From Chthoniobacterales bacterium (GTDB lineage: Bacteria; Verrucomicrobiota; Verrucomicrobiia; Chthoniobacterales; JACTMZ01): DNA of 64,000 nt. Where the stretch lies: assembly GCA_014879535.1 (NCBI GenBank), contig JACSRX010000089.1, forward strand, positions 9,905 to 73,904, in the 5' to 3' direction. A program made the translations under genes and the position numbers. A model generated the notes under the pieces. The model made no database searches and was not told the DNA's origin. It worked only from the letters and a program-made list of their open reading frames with translations. Shown piece by piece: positions 23,444 through 40,148 of the stretch. How positions within the stretch are numbered: the first letter of the stretch is position 1; every line of letters starts with the position of its first letter.

Positions 23444-24664
23444 ATGACATCGAACTACATCTTCTCCTCCGAGTCCGTCGGCGAAGGCCATCCCGACAAA
23501 GTTTGCGACACCATTTCCGACGCCATTCTGGACGCCTGCCTCCGGATCGACCCGAAGAGCCGTGTGGCCTGCGAAACTTTCGCCAAGAGCAACCTCGTCG
23601 TCGTGGGCGGCGAAATCACCATCCCCAAGCTCCAGAACCTGAAGACCGGAACCACCAAACCCATCGATCAGGTCATCAACGTGGGCAAGGTCGTCCGCGA
23701 TGCCGTCCAAGGCATCGGCTACGTGAATGACGACGACGTGTTCCACGCCGACAAGATTTTCATCAACAACAGCCTCACCACCCAGTCCCCCGACATCTCC
23801 CAAGGCGTCGATGCCAAGAAGGCCGTGGGAAAAAAGACCGCCGAGCAGGGCGCCGGCGACCAGGGGATCATGTTCGGCTACGCCTGCAATGAGACCAAGG
23901 AGCTGATGCCCGCTCCGATCATGTTCGCCCACCGCCTGGGACGCGAACTCACCCGCATCCGCAAGAGCGGCAAGGCCCCGTGGCTCCGCCCCGACGCCAA
24001 GAGCCAGGTGTCCGTCGAATACGTGGACGGCAAACCCGTCCGCATCACCAACGTCGTGATCTCCACCCAGCACGCCGCGAGTGCGAAGCACAAGGACATC
24101 GAGAAGTTCTGCATCGAGAACGTCATCAAGAAGGTCCTTCCCAAGTCCATGCTGACCTCCAAGACGGAGTATCTCATCAACCCGACCGGCAAGTTTGTCG
24201 TCGGTGGACCCCAGGGAGACAGCGGCCTCACCGGGCGCAAGATCATCGTGGACACCTACGGCGGCATGGGTCGCCACGGCGGCGGTGCCTTCTCCGGCAA
24301 GGATCCCTCCAAGGTGGACCGCAGCGCCGCCTACATGGCCCGCTGGGTTGCCAAGAACGTCGTGGCCTCCGGCCTCGCCGCCAAATGCGAGGTCCAATTC
24401 GCCTATGCCATCGGCCACCCCAAACCGGTCAGCGTCCACATCGACACCTTCGGAACCGGAGCCGTGTCCGACGCCAAAATCCTCAAGGCCGTCCTCAAGG
24501 TCTTCAGCTTCAAGCCGGCGGACATCGTCAGCCAGCTCAAGCTGTTGCGCCCGATCTATTCCAAGACGACCAACTACGGCCACTTCGGCAAGATCGGCGA
24601 CAAGGACATCACCTGGGAGATCACCAACAAAGCCGCGGAACTCCGCAAGGCGGCCGGGCTCTGA
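23444..24664 (+). CDS. metK: S-adenosylmethionine synthetase
   Basis: 406-aa ORF with [25 protein letters not shown] and [16 protein letters not shown]. Confidence 0.95.
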
Positions 24665-24675
24665 GAGGCCGGCCG

Positions 24676-25103
24676 GAGTTTTCAGTGATTCAGTTTTCAG
24701 TGTTCAGCAAATCCACAGCACCATGGCTTACCGGTCTTTCGAGGAACTCGAAGTCTGGCAGCGTGCCTGCCGTCAGGCTGTGGAGGTCTCCCGGGCATTC
24801 GAAGACTGCAAGAACTGGACGTTCCGCGACCAAATCCAGCGCGCCGCGTTGTCCGTTCCCTCGAACATCGCCGAGGGCTGCGAGCGCAACAGCGCGCCGG
24901 ATTTCAAGCGCTTCCTCAACATCGCGCTCGGCTCGAACGCCGAATTACGCACCCAACTCTACATCGCCGCGCGTATCGGCATAGTGTCCTCCGTCGATGC
25001 CATGGTCGCCGAAAACAAAGAAATCTCCGCCATGCTCAACGGCCTCCGCAAATCCCTCAAATCCTGAACTCACCAAAGACTGAAAACTGAACACTGAAAA
25101 CTC
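24676..25103. mobile_element. Inverted-repeat-bounded cassette carrying a four-helix-bundle (IVS-type) gene
   Basis: The left arm GAGTTTTCAGTGATTCAGTTTTCAGTG (24676-24702) pairs with the reverse complement of 25078-25103 (GAGTTTTCAGTGTTCAGTTTTCAGTC), with one bulged nucleotide and a mismatch at the innermost base. Both arms are built from GTTTTCAGT units. Confidence 0.55.
24723..25067 (+). CDS. Four-helix-bundle protein (23S rRNA intervening-sequence protein family, Avd-like fold)
   Basis: ATG 24723 inside ORF 24195..25067. Product MAYRSFEELEVWQRACRQAVEVSRAFE..IQRAALSVPSNIAEGCERNS..FLNIALGSNAELRTQL matches the family pattern. Confidence 0.85.
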   Translation: MAYRSFEELEVWQRACRQAVEVSRAFEDCKNWTFRDQIQRAALSVPSNIAEGCERNSAPDFKRFLNIALGSNAELRTQLYIAARIGIVSSVDAMVAENKEISAMLNGLRKSLKS

Positions 25104-25113
25104 CTCAAAAATC

Positions 25114-26547
25114 ATGACCACCAAATCCGCCACCGCACCAAAAAGAGACGACTTCAAAGTCGCCGACCTCGGCCTCGCCGACTGGGGCCGCAAGGAAATC
25201 GAAATCGCCGAGAAGGAAATGCCCGGCCTGATGTCCATCCGCGAGAAATACGCCAAGGAAAAGCCGCTGGCCGGCGTCCGCGTCACCGGCTCGCTGCACA
25301 TGACCATCCAGACCGCCGTCCTCATCGAGACGCTCGTCGCCCTCGGGGCCGACGTCCGCTGGGCGAGCTGCAACATCTTCTCGACGCAGGACCAGGCCGC
25401 CGCGGCCATCGCCGCCGCCGGCATCCCCGTCTTCGCGTGGAAGGGCGAGACCCTCGAGGAGTATTGGGACTGCACTTGGAAGGCCATCGTCAATGCCGAA
25501 GGCAAGGGCCCGCAGCTCGTCGTCGATGACGGCGGCGACGTCACCCTCTTCCTCCACAAGGGCTACGAGCTGGAAGACGGCGACGACTGGGTCAACACCC
25601 CCAGCGGCAGCCACGAGGAGAAGGTCATCAAGGACCTCCTCAAGAAGATCCACGCCGAGAGCCCCTACATCTTCCACGAACTCGTGAAGGAATGGCGCGG
25701 CGTCTCCGAGGAGACCACCACCGGCGTTCACCGCCTCTACAAGCTCCAGGAAATCGGCAAGCTCCTCGTCCCCGCGTTCAACGTCAACGACTCGGTCACC
25801 AAGTCGAAGTTCGACAACCTCTACGGCTGCCGCCACTCGCTGGTGGACGGACTCAACCGCGCGCTCGACGTCATGATTTCCGGCAAGGTCGCCGTGGTCT
25901 GCGGCTACGGGGACGTCGGCAAGGGCTCCGCCCAGTCGCTCCGCGGACAGGGCGCGCGCGTCATCGTCACCGAGATCGACCCGATCAACGCCCTGCAGGC
26001 CGCGATGGAGGGCTTCGAGGTCACCACGCTCGAGGACACCCTCGGCCGCGCCGACATCTACATCACCACGACCGGCAACAAGGACGTCATCACTGCCGAC
26101 CACATCTCGAAGATGAAGGACCAGGCCGTCATCGCGAACATCGGACACTTCGACAACGAGATCCAAGTGGACAAGCTCAACAACCTGCCCGGCGTGAAGA
26201 AGGTCAACATCAAGCCGCAGCTCGACAAATACGTCTTTCCCGACGGCAAGGAAGTCTTCCTGCTCGCCGAGGGACGCCTCGTCAACCTCGGCTGCGCCAC
26301 CGGCCACCCGAGCTTCGTCATGAGCAACAGCTTCTCCAATCAGACGCTGGCCGCGCTCGACCTGTGGAAGAACAAGGACGTTTACAAACCCGCCGTCTAT
26401 GTCCTTCCCAAGAAACTCGACGAGGAAGTCGCCCGCCTGCACCTGGAGAAAATCGGCGTCAAGCTGACCAAGCTCACCAAGGAGCAGTCCGAGTATCTCA
26501 GCGTCCCCGTCGAAGGCCCCTACAAGCCCGAGCATTACCGTTACTAG
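25114..26547 (+). CDS. ahcY: Adenosylhomocysteinase
   Basis: 477-aa ORF with [44 protein letters not shown] and C-terminus KPEHYRY. Confidence 0.95.
26512..26545 (+). repeat. Direct repeat copy A (functional last 11 codons of ahcY)
   Basis: GAAGGCCCCTACAAGCCCGAGCATTACCGTTACT matches 27494-27527 at 32 of 34 positions. Confidence 0.8.
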
Positions 26548-26577: not shown

Positions 26578-26605
26578 GGCCGTCCCGCAAGGGACGGCCT
26601 TCTTG
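26578..26605 (+). terminator. GC-rich GNRA-loop hairpin plus T-rich tail after ahcY (hairpin copy A)
   Basis: GGCCGTCCC-GCAA-GGGACGGCC followed by TTCTTG. The same 22-nt hairpin recurs at 27622-27653. Confidence 0.6.
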
Positions 26606-26670: not shown

Positions 26671-26916
26671 ATGACCGTCGCAGTCACCGAAGCTGACCGG
26701 GAGTTCGTTCGGCGCTGGCAAACCGCCGGCCCCGCTCTTGATGCGGTCAAGTGGGCTGAGTTGCAGGCCATGGACGAAGCAGAGGGGTGCCGTCAGAGCG
26801 CCATCGTCATGGACATGGCCGACCGCTGGCTCCGGCAGAATCCGGAAATCACCCGTCCCTCGGGTCTGGTCGAGCAACAGAGAATCTTCGCGCGCTGGTG
26901 GAACAGCCGCACATAG
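26671..26916 (+). CDS. Hypothetical 81-aa protein, upstream partner of the nucleotidyltransferase-fold gene
   Basis: ORF MTVAVTEADREFVRRWQTAGPALDAVKWAELQAMDEAEG.... It overlaps the likely start of the next gene. No family recognised. Confidence 0.4.
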   Translation: MTVAVTEADREFVRRWQTAGPALDAVKWAELQAMDEAEGCRQSAIVMDMADRWLRQNPEITRPSGLVEQQRIFARWWNSRT

Positions 26917-27482
26917 GCGTCGTCGGAGCCGCGGCTCTCGAGCTGCAGCAGGTCTGCCTCGACCACGGTTGGAGGTATTGCTTCATCGGCGGTTTGGCCG
27001 TGCTGGCGTGGGCTTATCCGCGCAGCACGATTGATGCGGACATCACGCTGTTGCCGGGATTTGGCAGCGAGGAGCCTTGCATCGACACCCTTCTCGGTCG
27101 ATTCGAGGCGCGCTTGCCAGACCCACGCGAGTTCGCCCTGCGTAACCGCGTGCTCTTGCTGCGAAGCCGGGACAACGTCGGCTTGGACGTCGGACTGGGC
27201 GCACTTCCCTTTGAGGGGAACAGCATCGCCCGCTCGGTCCCGCGCGAAATCTTCAAGGGCTGCACCCTCCGCGTATGCAGCGCCGAGGATCTCGTGGTGC
27301 ACAAGGCCTTCGCCGCACGCGATCAGGACTGGGCCGATGTGGATTCGGTCCTCATGCGCCAAGGCCAACGCCTCAACATCCCTCAAATCTTGAACGAGCT
27401 GCAACCCTTGGTTGCCTTGAAGGAAGAACCGGAGATCATCGACCGGCTCATGGCACTCCTGCACAAAAGGGGATTGGCCTGA
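26898..27482 (+). CDS. Minimal nucleotidyltransferase-fold protein (MNT/DUF2204/DUF6036-like)
   Basis: Frame is open from 26787. I prefer GTG 26898, but the start is uncertain. Motifs are FIGGLAVLAWAYPRSTIDADITL (GG..x..R.T.D.D NTase signature) and AEDLVVHKAFAARDQDWADVDSVL. Confidence 0.6.
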   Translation: MEQPHIGVVGAAALELQQVCLDHGWRYCFIGGLAVLAWAYPRSTIDADITLLPGFGSEEPCIDTLLGRFEARLPDPREFALRNRVLLLRSRDNVGLDVGLGALPFEGNSIARSVPREIFKGCTLRVCSAEDLVVHKAFAARDQDWADVDSVLMRQGQRLNIPQILNELQPLVALKEEPEIIDRLMALLHKRGLA

Positions 27483-27493
27483 GCCGCTGACCT

Positions 27494-27527
27494 GAAAGCC
27501 CCAACAAGCCCGAGCATTACCGTTACT
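27494..27527 (+). repeat. Direct repeat copy B (relic of an ahcY C-terminus, ESPNKPEHYRY-stop)
   Basis: GAAAGCCCCAACAAGCCCGAGCATTACCGTTACT followed by TGA, with an in-frame TGA 6 nt upstream, so only about 11 codons of homology remain. Confidence 0.8.
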
Positions 27528-27621: not shown

Positions 27622-27653
27622 CCAAAGGCCGTCCCGCAAGGGACGGCCTTTGG
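27622..27653 (+). terminator. Hairpin copy B (14-bp stem, GCAA loop)
   Basis: CCAAAGGCCGTCCC-GCAA-GGGACGGCCTTTGG. The core is identical to 26578-26599. Confidence 0.5.
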
Positions 27654-27824
27654 CGTCTGCGAACTCGGGCCGCGCTCAACGACCTTCCGCTCGATTACAA
27701 CAAACCATGACTGCCCCCCACCTCCACAATTCATCCAATTCCAACCGAGGCGCAGCCTCTTCGGCCAGCTCAGGGCACTCCTGTGCGACTGAGCGCCAAG
27801 CCGCTGTCTTCGACCTTAGCCTTC

Positions 27825-27852
27825 TGTCAGGATTTGTTGACAGACCCCTTTT
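27825..27852. repeat. Left copy of a perfect 28-bp inverted repeat
   Basis: TGTCAGGATTTGTTGACAGACCCCTTTT. Contains an internal hairpin CTGTCA-N8-TGACAG. Confidence 0.9.
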
Positions 27853-27923
27853 TAACACCCGGCGCTCTTGCCTCAGGCGAGATCATCACCGCCTCCGTGA
27901 TTCTCAAGAGAGCTACCGCGACT

Positions 27924-28763
27924 TCACGGGGCCCCGACAATGGGATCAGGAATAAAAATGGCCTTTGCGATGGCTGAACGCGTGAGCACTTCTTTGCCTG
28001 TCGGCCTTTCCTCCCGCGCCATCCCGTGGTAGCGAAGAGGTTGAAACCCGAGTTCAAGCAGTTTGCTAAGCGGGGAGAGTTTCAGCGCAGGCTTCCAATC
28101 AGGAATGCCGCCAGTTTCGTAGTAAAGAATCCAAGATTTGTCCGGCTTCGCCCATCCAGCAACGAGCATCACGTGTTCTCGTGGAATATTCAAAATATCG
28201 CCCGGCCGAAGGTCGAGTGGATCGGCAATCGGATCACAAATTGATGGCAGCTGCGACGAGTCATAAGCGCGGGGAAGTTTCAAGCAACGACTGACAAAAC
28301 CCGAGCAGTCCACTCCTACTGATTCCTCGCTGACGGCGGCGTTGTCGGCGGCACGTTTGGCCGGACTGGATACGTCTCCTCCGGCCAATCCGTTAGCGAT
28401 GCCCGCATCAAAAATCTCTGGGCTGTCGAACCCGCCCCACTTGTAGGGCATCCCCACATTGACCTCACCGGGAACCCACCAACCTTTGAGTCCTGAAGGC
28501 GGTTGGTAGCTCGTGTCCGGCGTGTCAACCCGCACGCCTCTACGGTCAGCGCCGTGGAGAATGTTTCGAGCAAAAGGACGCCAGGCATGGTTGCAATAAA
28601 CCTCAGCGTTCCTTATCGCCTCTGTCGGCGTCACCTGCGAAGGCGCATCGGCCCGACCTGGTTGCAGTGGCGACTCAACGGGCTTTGCTTCCGGTAAGGA
28701 CTGACAACCGATCAGTCCAGCGCTCAATGCGAAAGCACAAAAGCCGCGGCAGAGTTCCAACAT
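27924..28763 (-). CDS. Lipoprotein NlpC/P60 (C40) family cell-wall peptidase
   Basis: ORF 27924..28940, started at ATG 28763 (MLELCRGFCAFALSAGLIGC, lipobox). Catalytic Cys block VGVDCSGFVSRCL and His block REHVMLVAGW. Confidence 0.75.
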   Translation of the reverse strand: MLELCRGFCAFALSAGLIGCQSLPEAKPVESPLQPGRADAPSQVTPTEAIRNAEVYCNHAWRPFARNILHGADRRGVRVDTPDTSYQPPSGLKGWWVPGEVNVGMPYKWGGFDSPEIFDAGIANGLAGGDVSSPAKRAADNAAVSEESVGVDCSGFVSRCLKLPRAYDSSQLPSICDPIADPLDLRPGDILNIPREHVMLVAGWAKPDKSWILYYETGGIPDWKPALKLSPLSKLLELGFQPLRYHGMAREERPTGKEVLTRSAIAKAIFIPDPIVGAP

Positions 28764-28788
28764 CCCAAGAGTTTGACCAATTTCCCGA

Positions 28789-30174
28789 TTGCAGAAAAGC
28801 GCGCGCTTCGACGATGTTTCGGACGTGCCCCATTCGTTGAGAGCCATTGTTTCGATCGGACTTCTTGGCACCTTTCTCATGGTTGGGCTCAGGTCGGCAC
28901 TTGCCGAAACCAGGGCACGGCCGAATACCGCCTTAGTCATCGGGAATTCGCGCTACGAGTCCTCGCTTGGAAGACTCCGAAACCCGGAAAACGATGCCGT
29001 AGCCATCGCCAAGACCCTCCGCTCGCTGGGGTTCGTCGTGATCGAAAAAACGAACGTTAACCGCGATCAGTTCGCGCAAGCAGTCGAGGCATTCCGAAAG
29101 ACTCTGAGTGGCGCTGAGATTGCGATCTTTTACTACGCGGGGCATGGCGTTTCCATCAATGGGTCGAACTACCTCGTGCCTATTAAATCGGGTTTCGAGC
29201 CTGCCGGGACCGATTCCACAGCACTCAGACTGCTGGCGGAGACGCGTCTCTTCAATGCCGAGCAAGCAGTGGCTGACATGGGAGCCGGAGGAGCCCGATG
29301 CAACTTGGTTATACTGGATGCCTGCCGCACTCCGCCCGCTCTCAACCCCGAGCCCGTGCGAAGCTTTGGCGAGCAAAAGGGTCTTACTGAAATGACACCG
29401 CCTGCTGGCTCCCTCATCGCATTTGCATCGGATGCTGGGCAGGTTGCATTTGATGGCGACGGGCGCAACGGACTCTTTACGGAGGAGTTGCTTCGCAACA
29501 TGCGCACGCCGGGGTTGACCATCGAGCAGGTCTTCAAGAAAACCCGTGCTGCTGTCATCGACCGCACCAAAGGTCGGCAAGTTCCAGCTGAGTATTCCCG
29601 TCTCGTCGGCGACGACGTCTATCTGGCAGGAAAACTGGCTAGAGCACCAACGAGTCCCCCGGTCTCTTCGAGTCCCGAGGCGGTCGTTTCGCGAGCCGAA
29701 TCAGATCCCCTCACCAAACTCCGGTCATGGTCACAAGAAAGTGGCTCCGAGTCTGAAATGTTGGCTGCTATTTCTGCCATTCTTGAGGAGTCCAAGCTTT
29801 CCCTCAAGGATGCCGAATCAGCCAACCCTCGCATTCTGACCGTCGCCGAGCAATGCGGCGAACTGACAAAAATCATTCCATCGCTCGTCCCAAATGAGCA
29901 CCCACGATTTCGTGGTCTTCAAGCAAAAGCGTTCAGCCGCTATGGTGATGCTTTGCTCGTGCTCGGAAAACCAACCGAGGCCCACGCTGCATTCAAAGCA
30001 GCCGTCTCGGTGGACCCCGAGGATGCTTATCTCCTCTACAATCGTGGCCGCGCAGCGCTCGCTCTCGGGAACAAAGAAGACGCCAAAGCCGACTTCAACG
30101 CCGCCGCAGGCCCACGCTTCTCTCAACCGGGTGCCAAACGACTTGCTCTCGAAGCTCTGAACTCACTCAACTGA
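28789..30174 (+). CDS. Secreted caspase-fold (peptidase C14) protease with C-terminal TPR repeats
   Basis: 461-aa ORF (TTG 28789, alternative GTG 28825). Hydrophobic leader SLRAIVSIGLLGTFLMVGLRSALA, His block IFYYAGHGV, Cys block LVILDACR, and a TPR-like tail (AFSRYGDALLVLGKPTEAHAAFKAAVSVDPEDAYLLYNRGRAALALGNKEDAKADF). Confidence 0.8.
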   Translation: MQKSARFDDVSDVPHSLRAIVSIGLLGTFLMVGLRSALAETRARPNTALVIGNSRYESSLGRLRNPENDAVAIAKTLRSLGFVVIEKTNVNRDQFAQAVEAFRKTLSGAEIAIFYYAGHGVSINGSNYLVPIKSGFEPAGTDSTALRLLAETRLFNAEQAVADMGAGGARCNLVILDACRTPPALNPEPVRSFGEQKGLTEMTPPAGSLIAFASDAGQVAFDGDGRNGLFTEELLRNMRTPGLTIEQVFKKTRAAVIDRTKGRQVPAEYSRLVGDDVYLAGKLARAPTSPPVSSSPEAVVSRAESDPLTKLRSWSQESGSESEMLAAISAILEESKLSLKDAESANPRILTVAEQCGELTKIIPSLVPNEHPRFRGLQAKAFSRYGDALLVLGKPTEAHAAFKAAVSVDPEDAYLLYNRGRAALALGNKEDAKADFNAAAGPRFSQPGAKRLALEALNSLN

Positions 30175-30334
30175 GCATTCTGGAGCAAGTCTGAATGCCT
30201 AAACCGTGCGGCTGCCCCTCCTCAACGACCGAGGTGGAAGCGAGGGATAGGCTGGCTACAGCGTTCCTTGGGTGACCCCGAGTTGGTGAGTAGCGCGAAG
30301 TTCGCGCCAGAGGTCGGTGCCGCGCGCCAAAAGC

Positions 30335-30362
30335 AAAAGGGGTCTGTCAACAAATCCTGACA
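30335..30362. repeat. Right copy (reverse complement) of the perfect 28-bp inverted repeat
   Basis: AAAAGGGGTCTGTCAACAAATCCTGACA is the exact reverse complement of 27825-27852. Confidence 0.9.
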
Positions 30363-30393: not shown

Positions 30394-30765
30394 TCAAGCC
30401 CGCTCGAGCCCGTGCGCCAAGAAAGGCGTGAAGTCGTGCTGATTTCCCGTGGCCAAGCGCGCTCCCGCCACGAGGGCCGTGGCTGCAATCATGGCGTCCA
30501 CACGGAGGCTACGCTTTCGTCCGGCCGCATTGAACAGGCATGAGGCTTCACGGGCTTGTGCCTCCGCGAACGGGATCACCTCGGCAAGGAACCCCCGCAT
30601 GATCTCCTCCTGCTCCGGCGTGACCGGACCGCAGAGGAGTTCATACCAAGCCGGCATCGGCGCCAAGAGGCGCTCGCCGCGGCGATACCACGCCATGATG
30701 CGTTCGGCCTCCTCCGAACCCGGTTCGAGGCAGCGGATGAGGTAATTCGTGTCGAGGCAGATCAC
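30394..30765 (-). CDS. vapC: Type II toxin VapC (PIN domain RNase)
   Basis: 123-aa ORF with MICLDTNYLI (first acidic residue), VDAMIAATA and GNQHDF. The GTG start overlaps the vapB stop (GTGA). Confidence 0.85.
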   Translation of the reverse strand: MICLDTNYLIRCLEPGSEEAERIMAWYRRGERLLAPMPAWYELLCGPVTPEQEEIMRGFLAEVIPFAEAQAREASCLFNAAGRKRSLRVDAMIAATALVAGARLATGNQHDFTPFLAHGLERA

Positions 30766-31025
30766 GACGAGGCGCGCCAGTTTTTGCGGTCTTCGTCGAT
30801 CTCGGCGATCCAGCGGTCGGCTTCCGCTTTGGCAACGCCGCCGCCCTTGGCGTGCAAAGCGTGCAGCAGCGCCACCGGATCACTCCCCGCTGTTTGCGCC
30901 GTCAGGTCGGACCGCTCGACGGAGCGTCTGACGACTTCGGCCTGTGACACATTCCACAGCTTCGCCAAGCGCTTGAGACGCCAGGCTGTTGTTTCGTCCA
31001 AAGCGAAGGTCGTGCGGTAAGTCAT
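30762..31025 (-). CDS. vapB: Type II antitoxin, ribbon-helix-helix/VapB-like
   Basis: ORF 30762..31058, started at ATG 31025. Product MTYRTTFALDETTAWRLKRLAKLWNVSQAEVVRRSV has an RHH-like N-terminus. Confidence 0.7.
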   Translation of the reverse strand: MTYRTTFALDETTAWRLKRLAKLWNVSQAEVVRRSVERSDLTAQTAGSDPVALLHALHAKGGGVAKAEADRWIAEIDEDRKNWRASS

Positions 31026-31184
31026 GGTAGGCATACCATCACGTTTCATCCGCGGCAAGGCGCTTCAAACCCTCTCCGGCCGCTTCCACAATGTCCTTTG
31101 GATCGCGGCGCATATCTCCTCACCCCTAACCCGCAGGACTTCCGCGGCATCGACGGACTCGAAGTGCTTCCCTATGGCAATTGA

Positions 31185-37838: not shown

Positions 37839-40148
37839 TCAATCAGCCGACGCCTGCTTCTCCGCGTCCGGTTTGAATTTCCCGAGCTGCTGCATGTAGG
37901 CGATGAGCGCGATCACTTCCTTGTCGGGACTGATCCTCACGCCGCCCTTTTCAAGATCGCCGGCAATCTCCCGCCCCTGTGCGAGGAATTCCTCGCGGAT
38001 CTGCTCCGTTGACCGCTCCGGGAAAGGAACACCGAGCACGCGGAGGACGCGGATCTTTTCCGGAAGCGCACCGATGTCCGCCGTCCGGCGGTAAAGCCAA
38101 GGGTAGGCCGGCATGTTGCTGCCGATCGAGGTGGATCGCGGATTCTCGAAATGCTGGAAATGCCAGGCATTCGGATACTTCCCGCCCACACGCGCAAGAT
38201 CGGGGCCGGTGCGCTTGGATCCCCACTGGAACGGGTGGTCGTAGAGCGATTCCCCGAGACGGCCGCTCGGACCGTAGCGAAGGACCTCGCCGACCAGCGG
38301 ACGGATCATCTGGCTGTGGCAGTTGTAGCAGCCTTCGCGCACGTAGATGTCGCGCCCGCACAACTCGAGGGGCGTGTAGACATATTGCATGGCCTGCTCG
38401 TAATCGACCGCCTGCCGGGAGAAGACGAGGGGGAGGATCTGGATGGCGCCGCCGATGACCACCGCGAGGAGTGTCAGGACCGTGAAGGGCAGCCAGCTTT
38501 CGAGAAGCCGGTCATACCACTGGCTCCACTTCGCCCCGGAGATGCTCAGGTGGATCATCGCCACAAGCACCGTCTCGACCATGAGCACGAAGGAAACCGT
38601 GCTCACCGCGCCGCCTGCAAACCCCCAGAGGCAGGCGAAAACCACCAGCAGCACCGAGTAGAGCATCGGAGCATTGAACAACCCGCCCGCGAGCGACATC
38701 CCCTCGGCCGTGCGCCGCTCCGGAGCCGGAACCTCGACCGTCGTGGTGACGGGCTTCCCGGTGCGGATCGTGCGGACGAGATTGTAGGCCATAAGGATGA
38801 ACCCGAACAGGAAGAGCGCCCCGCCCAGGATGCGCATGTGCAGCATCGGCCGCACGGAGTTCACCACCTCGAGGAAATTCGGGTAGGCGAGGACGCCCTC
38901 GGATGTCACCGAGTTGAGCATCAGGCCGGTCGTGATGCCTGACACCCACATGGCCGCGATGTAGAGAAGGATCCCCACCATCCCGAGCCAGAAGTGGAGG
39001 TCGGCGAGTTTCGTCGAATACAGCCTTGTCCCCCAAAGCCGCGGGGTCAGCCAGTAGAACATGCCCGCAGCCATGAAGCTGTTCCACCCGAGCGTTCCGC
39101 TGTGCACGTGTCCGATCGTCCAATCGGTGTAGTGTGACAATGCGTTGACCGAGCGGATGGCGAGCAGCGGCCCCTCGAACGTGGACATGCCGTAGAACGT
39201 GACACCCGCCGCGAAGAACTTGAGCACCGGATCGGTGCGCAACTTGTGCCACGCCCCGCGCAGGGTGAGCAGGCCGTTGAGCATGCCGCCCCATGACGGC
39301 GCCCACAGCATGAGCGAAAAGACCATGCCCAGCGTCTGCAGCCATTCGGGAAGCGCCGTGTTGAGCAGATGGTGGGGCCCCGCCCAGATGTAGATGAAGA
39401 CCAGCGACCAGAAGTGCACCACCGACAGGCGGTAGCTGTAAACGGGTCGCTCCGCCGCCTTCGGCAGATAGTAATACATGATGCCGAGGATCGGCGTCGT
39501 CAGGAAGAAGGCGACGGCGTTGTGTCCATACCACCACTGGACCAGGGCGTCCTGCACACCCCCGAAGATCGGATAGGAGTGCAGCAGGGAAGTCGGCAGC
39601 GAGAGGTGGTTGACGATGTAGAGCATCGCCACCGTGATGATCGTGGCGATGTAGAACCAGATGGCGACATAGAGCGACTTCTCGTTGCGCACCGCCAGCG
39701 TCCAGAAAAAGTTGATGGCGAAGACGACCCAGATGAGCGCCACCGCGATGTTGATCGGCCAGATGAGCTCGGCGTATTCCTTGCCCCGCGTGAACCCGAG
39801 TGGCAGCGTGATGGCCGCACCCACGATGATGAGCTGCCAGCCCCAGAAATGCAGCCATGACAGGAACCCGGACGCCAGCCGCGTGCGCACCAGGCGCTGC
39901 GTGGAATGGTAGATCCCGGCGAACATCATGTTGCCGACGAAGGCGAAGATCGCGGCATTCGTGTGGAGCGGACGCAGCCTCCCGAACGTGAGCCACGATG
40001 TGTCGAAGTTGAGCACGTAAAAGCTCATCTGGGCAGCGATGAGAACACCGGCAAGCATGGCGACGAGCCCCCAGAGGACAGCGGCCAGCATGAAATAGCG
40101 CACGACCTTGTCGTCGTAGGTCACCGAAACAGTTTGTGTGTTGTTCAT
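37839..40148 (-). CDS. ccoNO: Fused cbb3-type cytochrome c oxidase subunits I and II (CcoN-CcoO)
   Basis: 769-aa ORF. The CcoN part has WWYGHNAVAFFLTTPILGIMYYYLPK, GPHHLL and HVHSGTLGW. The C-terminal CcoO part has heme-c site CYNCHSQMIRP. Confidence 0.9.
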   Translation of the reverse strand: MNNTQTVSVTYDDKVVRYFMLAAVLWGLVAMLAGVLIAAQMSFYVLNFDTSWLTFGRLRPLHTNAAIFAFVGNMMFAGIYHSTQRLVRTRLASGFLSWLHFWGWQLIIVGAAITLPLGFTRGKEYAELIWPINIAVALIWVVFAINFFWTLAVRNEKSLYVAIWFYIATIITVAMLYIVNHLSLPTSLLHSYPIFGGVQDALVQWWYGHNAVAFFLTTPILGIMYYYLPKAAERPVYSYRLSVVHFWSLVFIYIWAGPHHLLNTALPEWLQTLGMVFSLMLWAPSWGGMLNGLLTLRGAWHKLRTDPVLKFFAAGVTFYGMSTFEGPLLAIRSVNALSHYTDWTIGHVHSGTLGWNSFMAAGMFYWLTPRLWGTRLYSTKLADLHFWLGMVGILLYIAAMWVSGITTGLMLNSVTSEGVLAYPNFLEVVNSVRPMLHMRILGGALFLFGFILMAYNLVRTIRTGKPVTTTVEVPAPERRTAEGMSLAGGLFNAPMLYSVLLVVFACLWGFAGGAVSTVSFVLMVETVLVAMIHLSISGAKWSQWYDRLLESWLPFTVLTLLAVVIGGAIQILPLVFSRQAVDYEQAMQYVYTPLELCGRDIYVREGCYNCHSQMIRPLVGEVLRYGPSGRLGESLYDHPFQWGSKRTGPDLARVGGKYPNAWHFQHFENPRSTSIGSNMPAYPWLYRRTADIGALPEKIRVLRVLGVPFPERSTEQIREEFLAQGREIAGDLEKGGVRISPDKEVIALIAYMQQLGKFKPDAEKQASAD

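Follow-up and report, generated by a model that had tools for sequence, protein, structure and literature searches.

The question raised by the locus described here is whether two genes that are boxed in by a perfect inverted repeat form a mobile cassette that moves without a transposase of its own. The locus lies in a 64,000-nucleotide stretch of contig JACSRX010000089.1 from a Chthoniobacterales bacterium (the whole of this stretch is called the window below), in which the 28-mer TGTCAGGATTTGTTGACAGACCCCTTTT, at 27825-27852 on the plus strand, recurs as its exact reverse complement at 30335-30362, 2482 bp further on. A first-pass annotation of this DNA had favored an insertion cassette whose passenger genes sit between insertion sequence (IS)-type ends and are mobilized in trans. 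The repeats, or arms, and their spacing are exactly as described there, and no further match to the 28-mer is found in the 64-kb window when up to three mismatches are allowed, with none expected from 100 shuffles. The analysis presented below indicates, however, that the arms are probably stray solo ends of a TIRtron family beside an acquired gene pair rather than parts of a transposable cassette, and that they are most likely inert.

According to the relevant passages of two published descriptions, a TIRtron consists of a Y1 (HUH) tyrosine transposase gene, similar to the transposases associated with repetitive extragenic palindromes (REP-associated tyrosine transposases, RAYTs), between inverted repeats whose outer tips read GGGGWSAS (PMC3733652, PMC6006769). 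In the passages of Di Nocera et al. 2013 (PMC3733652) that name such units TIRtrons and their enzymes TIRYTs, GGGGWSAS is given as the common tip motif, and families of terminal inverted repeats (TIRs) are said to occur as single, dimeric and grouped copies; the corresponding part of Quentin et al. 2018 (PMC6006769) places TIRYTs in subclass 2.1 of TnpA-REP. The two arms in the window are as follows.

27825-27852, plus strand: left arm, a solo TIRYT-type terminal inverted repeat; exact 28-mer.
30335-30362, minus strand: right arm, a solo copy on the opposite strand; exact reverse complement of the left arm.

The left arm reads TGT...GACCCC followed by TTTT, and its outer tip (CCCC-TTTT) is directed right, at the gene pair. 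The outer tip of the right arm (AAAA-GGGG) is directed left, likewise at the gene pair, and 32 bp separate this arm from the stop codon of the neighboring vapC gene.

A degenerate 24-mer pattern, TGTNANGANTTGTTGACNGACCCC, was written to tolerate the differences between the window and a related 2477-bp contig (L007; handles of this form denote loci fetched for comparison) and was scanned on metagenome contigs. It gave at least 143 exact matches on at least 120 contigs, mostly from soil metagenomes, where about 2 would be expected by chance (an estimate), and 0 matches on viral contigs. On genome contigs, a 19-mer gave only 6 single matches, all in unrelated taxa and judged to be due to chance. 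The family statistics that follow are those among the matches listed (at least 120 loci), a sample that is biased toward pattern-matching copies. The consensus of the family is TGTCAAGA(T/A)TTGTTGACTGACCCC, followed by T(A/T)TT; the commonest tail is TATT, and the second commonest is TTTT, the tail found in the window. With the family profile, nhmmer recovers the left arm at E 3e-10 and the right arm at E 3e-9, and the left arm shows two departures from the 24-nt metagenome consensus, TGTCAAGATTTGTTGACTGACCCC. Among the matches listed (at least 120 contigs) there are 177 copies: 59 stand in doublets, 13 in full-size units and 51 alone (51 of the 123 classifiable copies), the other 54 being unassigned. 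The proposal that the 28-mers are cassette ends does not survive this distribution, as the sequence is a dispersed intergenic repeat that lies beside unrelated genes.

The open reading frames (ORFs) near the copies cluster into one dominant family, found at 22 loci among the matches listed and mostly on the inner side of the repeats. The full unit is about 1.1 kb long and consists of a 349-aa IS200-like Y1 transposase between a minus copy and a plus copy of the repeat. A complete transposase gene lies exactly between such copies in six loci (L014, L067, L085, L092, L124 and L129), and the ORF is 349-352 aa long in six metagenome loci and two genome loci. In Pfam, the protein scores 36.4 bits against Y1_Tnp (cut-off 23), and its HYH and YIHLNP motifs are readable. 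The NCBIfam model for REP-associated tyrosine transposases (REP_Tyr_transpos) is hit at E 3.5e-18 with 65.9 bits, below the cut-off of 80, and the IS200 model of NCBIfam gives no match (E 0.039). Enzymes of subclass 2.1 are long and extend at the C-terminus into a helix-turn-helix region; here, approximately 210 aa of the 349 form a C-terminal extension, in which Pfam Bac_DnaA_C, HTH_23 and HTH_28 gave no match at E<=0.1. Homologues of the transposase number 5628 at E<=0.001, and among them are entries from Chthoniobacteraceae, Methylacidiphilales and Verrucomicrobiaceae that are annotated as 'REP element-mobilizing transposase RayT' or 'transposase'. At two loci that were fetched by the protein alone, L134 (a metagenome-assembled genome of Chthoniobacteraceae) and L136 (a 3.2-Mb contig), the gene is again bracketed by these repeats, even though the transposases are only 54-55% identical to the query, and the 18-21-kb loci around these two genomic TIRYT genes hold only the two flanking copies each. 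The earlier view of the arms as IS-type ends is therefore borne out: full-length elements with the same termini and with a transposase exist elsewhere.

Across five loci (L085, L092, L124, L134 and L136) the 24-nt repeat has 0-4 mismatches and the transposase proteins are only 48-55% identical, and the repeat ends thus appear far more constrained than the enzyme; a 24-nt end that stays almost invariant while its transposase falls to about 50% identity is of interest, as is the size of the family. Many transposase homologues lie on contigs of about the size of the element (approximately 1.1-1.9 kb), and contigs with these elements tend to terminate within the repeats. Metagenome assemblies appear to be interrupted by the repeat family, and this is the likely reason for assembly breaks around such genes.

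In the loci whose sequence was read, the transposase stop codon lies inside the plus copy (L014 and L134). True coding overlap of the repeat is confined to these last transposase codons (…SVKNC, then stop) and to the plus copy of full-length units. The idea that the 24-mer is itself a coding motif, suggested by variable sites at every third base and by a frame reading CQDLLTDP, was rejected, as the frames are closed across flank groups.

The polarity of the repeat follows from three observations. The 200 nt on the TGT side fall into a single cluster for 77 of 141 sequences, and the 200 nt on the CCCC side form 126 clusters from 143 sequences. An inverted partner with up to four mismatches lies within 450 bp on the TGT side of 38 of 122 copies and on the CCCC side of 0 of 128. 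Together with the placement of the transposase, these figures, obtained among the matches listed, identify the GGGG/CCCC tip of the element as the outer one. All 8 positions of GGGGWSAS are matched by the family tip, GGGGTCAG, and 7 of the 8 by the tip of the window arms, GGGGTCTG.

Shorter members of the family are doublets, which when complete have the form GGGGTCAGTCAACAAATCTTGACA - 3 to 462 bp - TGTCAAGATTTGTTGACTGACCCC, are 51-510 bp long and show no target-site duplication. N- or C-terminal transposase remnants are kept in many of the shorter doublets, and the doublets are therefore taken to be internal-deletion derivatives of the full unit. In the minimal doublets at L027 2106-2158 and L109 3174-3225, the copies stand head to head with a 4-5-nt spacer and form perfect palindromes of 52-53 bp that fold as DNA at -30 kcal/mol. 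In many metagenome copies a tandem 'stutter' of the last 10-27 nt was also seen just beyond the tip, for example GTTGACTGACCCCTATTGTTCTATTCT twice (L055 3759-3830, L102 2173-2240, L032 from 865, L101 from 3679, and L023, L049 and L083).

The family resembles published TIRtrons in its RAYT-like Y1 transposase of about 350 aa between inverted repeats, one of which overlaps the 3' end of the gene, in tips that fit GGGGWSAS, and in its dispersed single, dimeric and grouped copies. Unlike the families called 'moderately abundant' in the published text, it is far larger. The window itself departs from a TIRtron in holding solo copies only, with no transposase and with a tip that deviates from the motif at one position. 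Elements of this kind are thus already known, and we rate the particular repeat sequence in verrucomicrobial hosts as new to the literature searched: a literature search for the repeat sequence TGTCAAGATTTGTTGACTGACCCC gave no match, and the passages on TIRYTs in that literature name no verrucomicrobial host. What is added here is the consensus, polarity and size range of a very abundant soil TIRtron family whose enzymes are named in Verrucomicrobiota annotations.

Two related systems differ more clearly. As in the REP/REPIN-RAYT system (Nunvar 2010; Bertels & Rainey 2011, PMC3116915), there are short extragenic repeats with a hairpin, inverted doublets, a Y1 gene between two inverted copies, no target-site duplication and common solo copies. 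However, a REP is marked by a GTAG/GTGG tag at the foot of an imperfect, GC-rich palindrome, and neither is found in the family, whose tag is GGGG and whose AT-rich stem, GTCAA/TTGAC, has only 5 bp (-2.3 kcal/mol). Moreover, the doublet spacers are transposase remnants, in the style of internal deletions or miniature inverted-repeat transposable elements, and not the fixed spacer of a REPIN, and the transposase scores below the NCBIfam RAYT cut-off (65.9 versus 80 bits). With the IS200/IS605 elements and with the palindrome-associated transposable elements (PATEs), which are non-autonomous forms derived from them, the family shares an HUH Y1 transposase (Pfam Y1_Tnp), end hairpins, the lack of a target-site duplication and short derivatives that keep only the ends. 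In IS200/IS605, however, the ends are two hairpins on one strand and are not inverted repeats of each other, whereas the ends described here are inverted repeats that agree almost perfectly; the family transposase, furthermore, leaves the IS200 model of NCBIfam unmatched (E 0.039).

When this polarity is applied to the window, the tips of both arms are directed at the genes; the two are therefore not the ends of a single element, and each ends something that lies outside the box. For the left arm, part of that outer sequence can be recognized, and a further copy lies beyond it.

27803-27813, plus strand: inner extension of the left arm, GCTGTCTTCGA; 11 nt, common to one solo-copy subfamily.
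27695-27718, plus strand: degenerate third copy, TTACAACAAACCATGACTGCCCCC; subtype of the L007 right end.

In an alignment with the left arm, L023, L036, L056 and L083 all have CGCTGTCTTCGAGGCTCTATCTCATAAATC directly before TGTCA. Because the GCTGTCTTCGA extension is common to this solo subfamily, the left arm's own sequence runs on leftward, away from the gene pair. The degenerate copy is 20/24 identical to the right-arm variant of L007 and is the sole match to it in the window at up to six mismatches; 30 shuffles gave 0 matches at up to four. This copy has the orientation of the left arm and precedes it by 106 bp. The window thus contains two good copies and one degenerate copy, and tblastn with the family transposase found no TIRYT gene in it. 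No partner copy adjoins either arm, whether sought with the nhmmer family profile or by ungapped scans allowing up to eight mismatches in 24, and when the inner and outer flanks of the arms were compared by BLAST with all fetched loci, L007 was the sole match. As had been stated earlier, there is no target-site duplication, the outer flanks being GCCTTC and ATATCT.

We therefore prefer to regard each arm as a solo copy of a TIRtron's terminal inverted repeat, which is 24-28 bp long. On the model of the TnpA-REP and IS200-IS605 enzymes, the Y1 HUH transposase would bind the small hairpin in single-stranded DNA, the TIRYT would cut and rejoin beside the GGGG tip, and non-autonomous copies could thereby spread in trans without a target-site duplication. 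The box would then consist of stray ends that are independent of each other and oppositely oriented, an arrangement that is one of four possible. Tips-facing neighbors of this kind occur in 9 cases in the metagenome loci among the matches listed, and eight such intervals that were inspected (203-2945 bp) hold unrelated ORFs when read by eye without a library scan, including short-chain-dehydrogenase-like, carbonic-anhydrase-like and several secreted proteins. The mobile insertion cassette has to be abandoned on these grounds, since the outer tips face the genes and the corresponding arms of L007 (see below) are diverged and shifted. A composite transposon would likewise have two identical, inverted IS-type ends around acquired-looking passengers; however, the outer tips here face the passengers, there is no full element on either side, no target-site duplication is present, and in the nearest relative, L007, the ends have not diverged together with the passengers. 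Two further transposon types were considered and set aside: a Tn3-type element, suggested by the GGGG tips, would leave a 5-bp duplication that was not found, and both this and Tn7-like TGT...ACA ends with repeated binding sites conflict with the Y1 transposase that lies between the repeats and with the lack of a duplication. A probable false lead is hereby removed, in that the box is not a new transposase-less cassette, but a pair of stray ends from Y1-transposase elements of an already known class.

Several observations nevertheless weigh against this interpretation. Two to three copies in 64 kb are few for a 'high-copy' repeat. The arms agree with each other at 28/28 positions, two of which depart from the family consensus in both, and no decayed partner stands beside either; this identity requires a recent solo insertion or gene conversion. 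Homology with L007 stops 40-140 bp from the arms, and the L007 copies stand in the same tips-in geometry, a pattern that would look the same for a unit exchanged between genomes. Finally, the TIRYT mechanism outlined above is drawn by analogy from other enzymes.

The last but one of these points is best judged from the enclosed genes and their relatives. As described in the first-pass annotation, two divergent genes lie between the repeats.

27924-28763, minus strand: lipoprotein gene, 279 aa, from the ATG that precedes the lipobox LIGC; outside the repeat element.
28837-30174, plus strand: gene for a caspase-fold (C14) protease that begins with a hydrophobic leader and ends in a TPR region; another possible start at 28789; outside the repeat element.

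The identification of the second gene as a leader-bearing caspase-fold protease with a TPR tail is confirmed by Pfam, in which Peptidase_C14 (PF00656) is matched at 3e-37 (129 bits against a cut-off of 21.4) and TPR_2 at 4e-10, and the dyad of His (YYAGHG) and Cys (LDACR) is visible in the translation. The C40/NlpC-P60 label of the lipoprotein fared less well. Neither Pfam, NCBIfam nor PDB sequence profiles match the protein, whereas a DCSG...H motif is present: the lipobox Cys20 is invariant among 31 homologues, and Cys153 (of DCSG) and His197 are likewise invariant. The AlphaFold2 model (mean pLDDT, the per-residue confidence score, 78.9) finds CHAP/NlpC domains as its best Foldseek matches, albeit weakly (E 0.045-0.4), with a root-mean-square deviation of 3.3 A over 105 columns to the CHAP domain of PcsB (Foldseek prob 0.85). 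This motif and these weak matches suggest, tentatively, that the lipoprotein may belong, as a remote relative, to the NlpC/P60-CHAP papain-like fold.

Homologues of both proteins are numerous at E<=0.001 (749 for the lipoprotein and 1888 for the caspase protein), with names from Chthoniobacterales, Terrimicrobiaceae and Prosthecobacter, and the top-hit lists have 34 contig sizes in common. When the caspase protein and AhcY were looked up as exact sequences, neither gave a match. The two genes are adjacent and divergent in L007, L009-L013, L137, L138 and L140, in neighborhoods that differ; in L008 and L139, the partner gene is cut by the contig end or unidentified. The divergent pair of a secreted caspase-C14/TPR protein and a Cys-His lipoprotein thus appears to be widely conserved in Verrucomicrobiota. 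In the window, its composition is foreign, as had been noted earlier: the GC content between the arms is 0.570, against 0.643 in the remaining window, and the GC content at third codon positions (GC3) is 0.57-0.59 in the gene pair, against 0.77-0.91 in metK, ahcY and the cbb3-oxidase genes and 0.73-0.77 in the flanking toxin-antitoxin genes. The pair in the window is a horizontally acquired allele of lower GC, in agreement with the earlier view that the enclosed genes look acquired. It appears, therefore, to be an old conserved module of the lineage that is present here as a foreign allele within a toxin-antitoxin mosaic downstream of ahcY. Widely conserved, uncharacterized and here with clear signs of recent transfer, it deserves a study of its own.

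The closest version of the pair is that of L007, which carries the same genes with diverged versions of the repeat at both sides.

27891-30195, no strand: segment in common with L007; 2305 bp, 33 substitutions, no indels, 98.57% identity; contains the compositionally foreign pair.

The L007 repeats also face the genes with their tips, and it was observed that the contig ends inside the repeats at both ends. Between the L007 arms and the window arms there are differences at 6/28 and 9/28 sites (P 2e-6 and 1e-10, respectively, at the divergence of the genes), and the distances of the L007 arms to the shared segment are 2 and 8 nt, compared with 38 and 139 nt in the window. Because the arms have diverged more than the genes and stand at other distances from them, they did not accompany the genes in inheritance or transfer.

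These observations bear directly on the possibility that the pair was brought in, or exchanged, by means of the repeat copies, either through homologous recombination between repeat copies that donor and recipient both had or through TIRYT cutting at both facing tips, much as in cassette exchange. Such an exchange would account for the foreign composition of the pair (GC3 0.57-0.59 versus 0.77-0.91), for an L007 pair of 98.6% identity that likewise lies between tips-facing family repeats, with homology ending 38 and 139 bp from the window arms, for the 28/28 identity of the arms to each other, and for surroundings that are a mosaic of toxin-antitoxin modules. It is at odds, however, with arms that are inside-out relative to an autonomous element, so that cutting at the tips would free DNA without the recognition hairpin, and with window and L007 arms that are far more different than the genes and differently spaced from them. 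The arms, at 28 bp, are about as short as homologous recombination allows. Furthermore, ten other loci with relatives of the pair (L008-L013 and L137-L140) have no TIR-family copy, tips-facing pairs elsewhere surround unrelated genes, and the L007 contig ends in repeats, beyond which its genomic context is not readable. We consider the exchangeable unit unlikely on balance. A general association between the gene pair and the repeat is ruled out by the same ten loci, and the two of them that have long flanks show native GC for the pair relative to its surroundings (0.649 versus 0.628 in L009, and 0.647 versus 0.653 in L013); the comparison with relatives thus also speaks against the cassette first proposed. 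The broader idea that facing TIRYT repeat pairs mark DNA swapped between verrucomicrobial genomes, by Y1 cutting at the tips or by recombination between 24-mers, is given a very small chance. Were it true, facing repeat copies would help to move DNA between genomes and would represent a cassette-exchange route without an integrase, the swapped DNA in this case being a periplasmic caspase / cell-wall-hydrolase pair.

A different role was raised by the first-pass annotation as an alternative, namely that the arms are terminators or insulators. In its co-opted form, the arms would stop toxin-antitoxin read-through into the acquired pair, or would stabilize mRNA 3' ends. The neighbors on which this depends are the following.

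26671-27482, plus strand: AbiEii/DUF6036-like nucleotidyltransferase toxin-antitoxin module (left neighbor); reads toward the left arm; Pfam scores below the cut-offs.
30394-31058, minus strand: VapBC-type module (right neighbor), with a PIN toxin at 30394-30765 and a candidate antitoxin at 30762-31058; reads toward the right arm.

Each arm does lie downstream of an operon that reads toward it, the hairpin then being followed by CCCCTTTT(T) or CCCCTTTTGCTTTT, and the left arm was picked up by a terminator-like scan. In the full-length units of L014 and L134, the transposase stop codon falls within this same end, and for REPs a position mostly downstream of genes is reported (PMC3733652). The hairpins themselves, however, are very weak. 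The structure CTGTCA-N8-TGACAG that had been ascribed to each repeat is complete at the left copy only, where flanking bases extend the stem to 6-7 bp, its 6-bp form being the one described; within the repeat the stem has 5 bp. Folded as DNA, the left hairpin reaches -4.9 kcal/mol (z -2.7) and the right -2.5 kcal/mol, with a z of only -1.4. The scan, moreover, returned 7 terminator-like sites against 5.3 expected in shuffles, and the left arm stands approximately 170 bp past a much stronger hairpin at 27622-27653. Among the matches listed, the family has no clear orientation bias relative to neighboring ORFs (42 versus 28 on the outer side, 20 versus 25 on the inner side), and an orientation rule relative to neighboring genes was rejected, as 42 versus 28 is a weak bias only. 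An Rfam scan gave no match at E<=1. Co-opted terminators are judged quite improbable. If the solo ends have any effect at all, they would be at most weak terminators for the toxin-antitoxin operons that read toward them, or short patches of homology.

In the last alternative, a tyrosine or serine recombinase would use the arms as its sites (integron attC halves, Xer-type dif sites or Gin/Hin-type sites), and the 2.5-kb block would be inverted or moved by site-specific recombination. Acinetobacter dif modules show an alternating module-site-module layout with toxin-antitoxin neighbors. The locus recalls this layout, in that short structured sites bound a module of one to two genes with toxin-antitoxin genes next door, and each arm resembles a core site, with inverted arms of 5-6 bp around a 6-8-bp spacer and with R''/R'-like boxes (AGTCAAC / GTTGACT). 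Each of these boxes is, however, one position off the GTTRRRY consensus. The enzyme encoded by the full-length units is a Y1 HUH transposase and not an integrase such as IntI or a XerC/D recombinase, and no recombinase is present among the scanned ORFs. The halves of the doublets are perfectly complementary, without the extrahelical bases that define attC, the sites occur in mixed orientation, and the doublets are 51-510 bp long and often contain transposase remnants. In addition, inverting two complete divergent genes together with their own intergenic promoter region would bring about no obvious change. We regard a site-specific segment as scarcely credible; attC halves and Xer-dif modules were set aside on account of the Y1 transposase between the repeats and the absence of a duplication. 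There is, likewise, no relevant tRNA integration site in the window, in which the only tRNA is at 63.7 kb.

The solo-end interpretation thus remains the one that we prefer, and the statement that no mobility gene lies nearby is upheld with it. Pfam searches of ORFs that were selected on length and GC3 between 11.8 and 49.3 kb, together with the immediate neighbors, revealed no transposase, integrase or recombinase, and tblastn with the TIRYT added none.

The modules on either side of the box were assigned with differing certainty. For the left neighbor, Pfam gives DUF6036 at E 6.8e-4 (19.9 versus 23.6 bits) and AbiEii at E 1.5e-3 (19.0 versus 22.5 bits). For the right neighbor, the PIN toxin is matched above the cut-off at 1.3e-9, and the antitoxin more weakly, by RHH_1 at E 0.0094 (16.3 versus 20.5 bits). 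Around the left module, the last 34 nt of ahcY are doubled, at 26512-26545 and 27494-27527, with 94% identity, and the 24-nt ahcY terminator hairpin is doubled at 26578-26601 and 27627-27650 with 100% identity, both as direct repeats. As the doubled ahcY 3' end and terminator pieces bracket the module at 26671-27482, the latter looks like an insertion that duplicated, or carried its own copy of, the ahcY 3' end.

Two further genes in the window were recorded. Between metK and ahcY, a '23S rRNA intervening sequence protein' gene lies at 24741-25067, within an ORF at 24195-25067 (PF05635 1.9e-29). At 37839-40148 on the minus strand, a single ORF of 769 aa contains the domains of both cbb3 oxidase subunit I (COX1) and FixO/CcoO, and CcoN and CcoO therefore appear to be fused.

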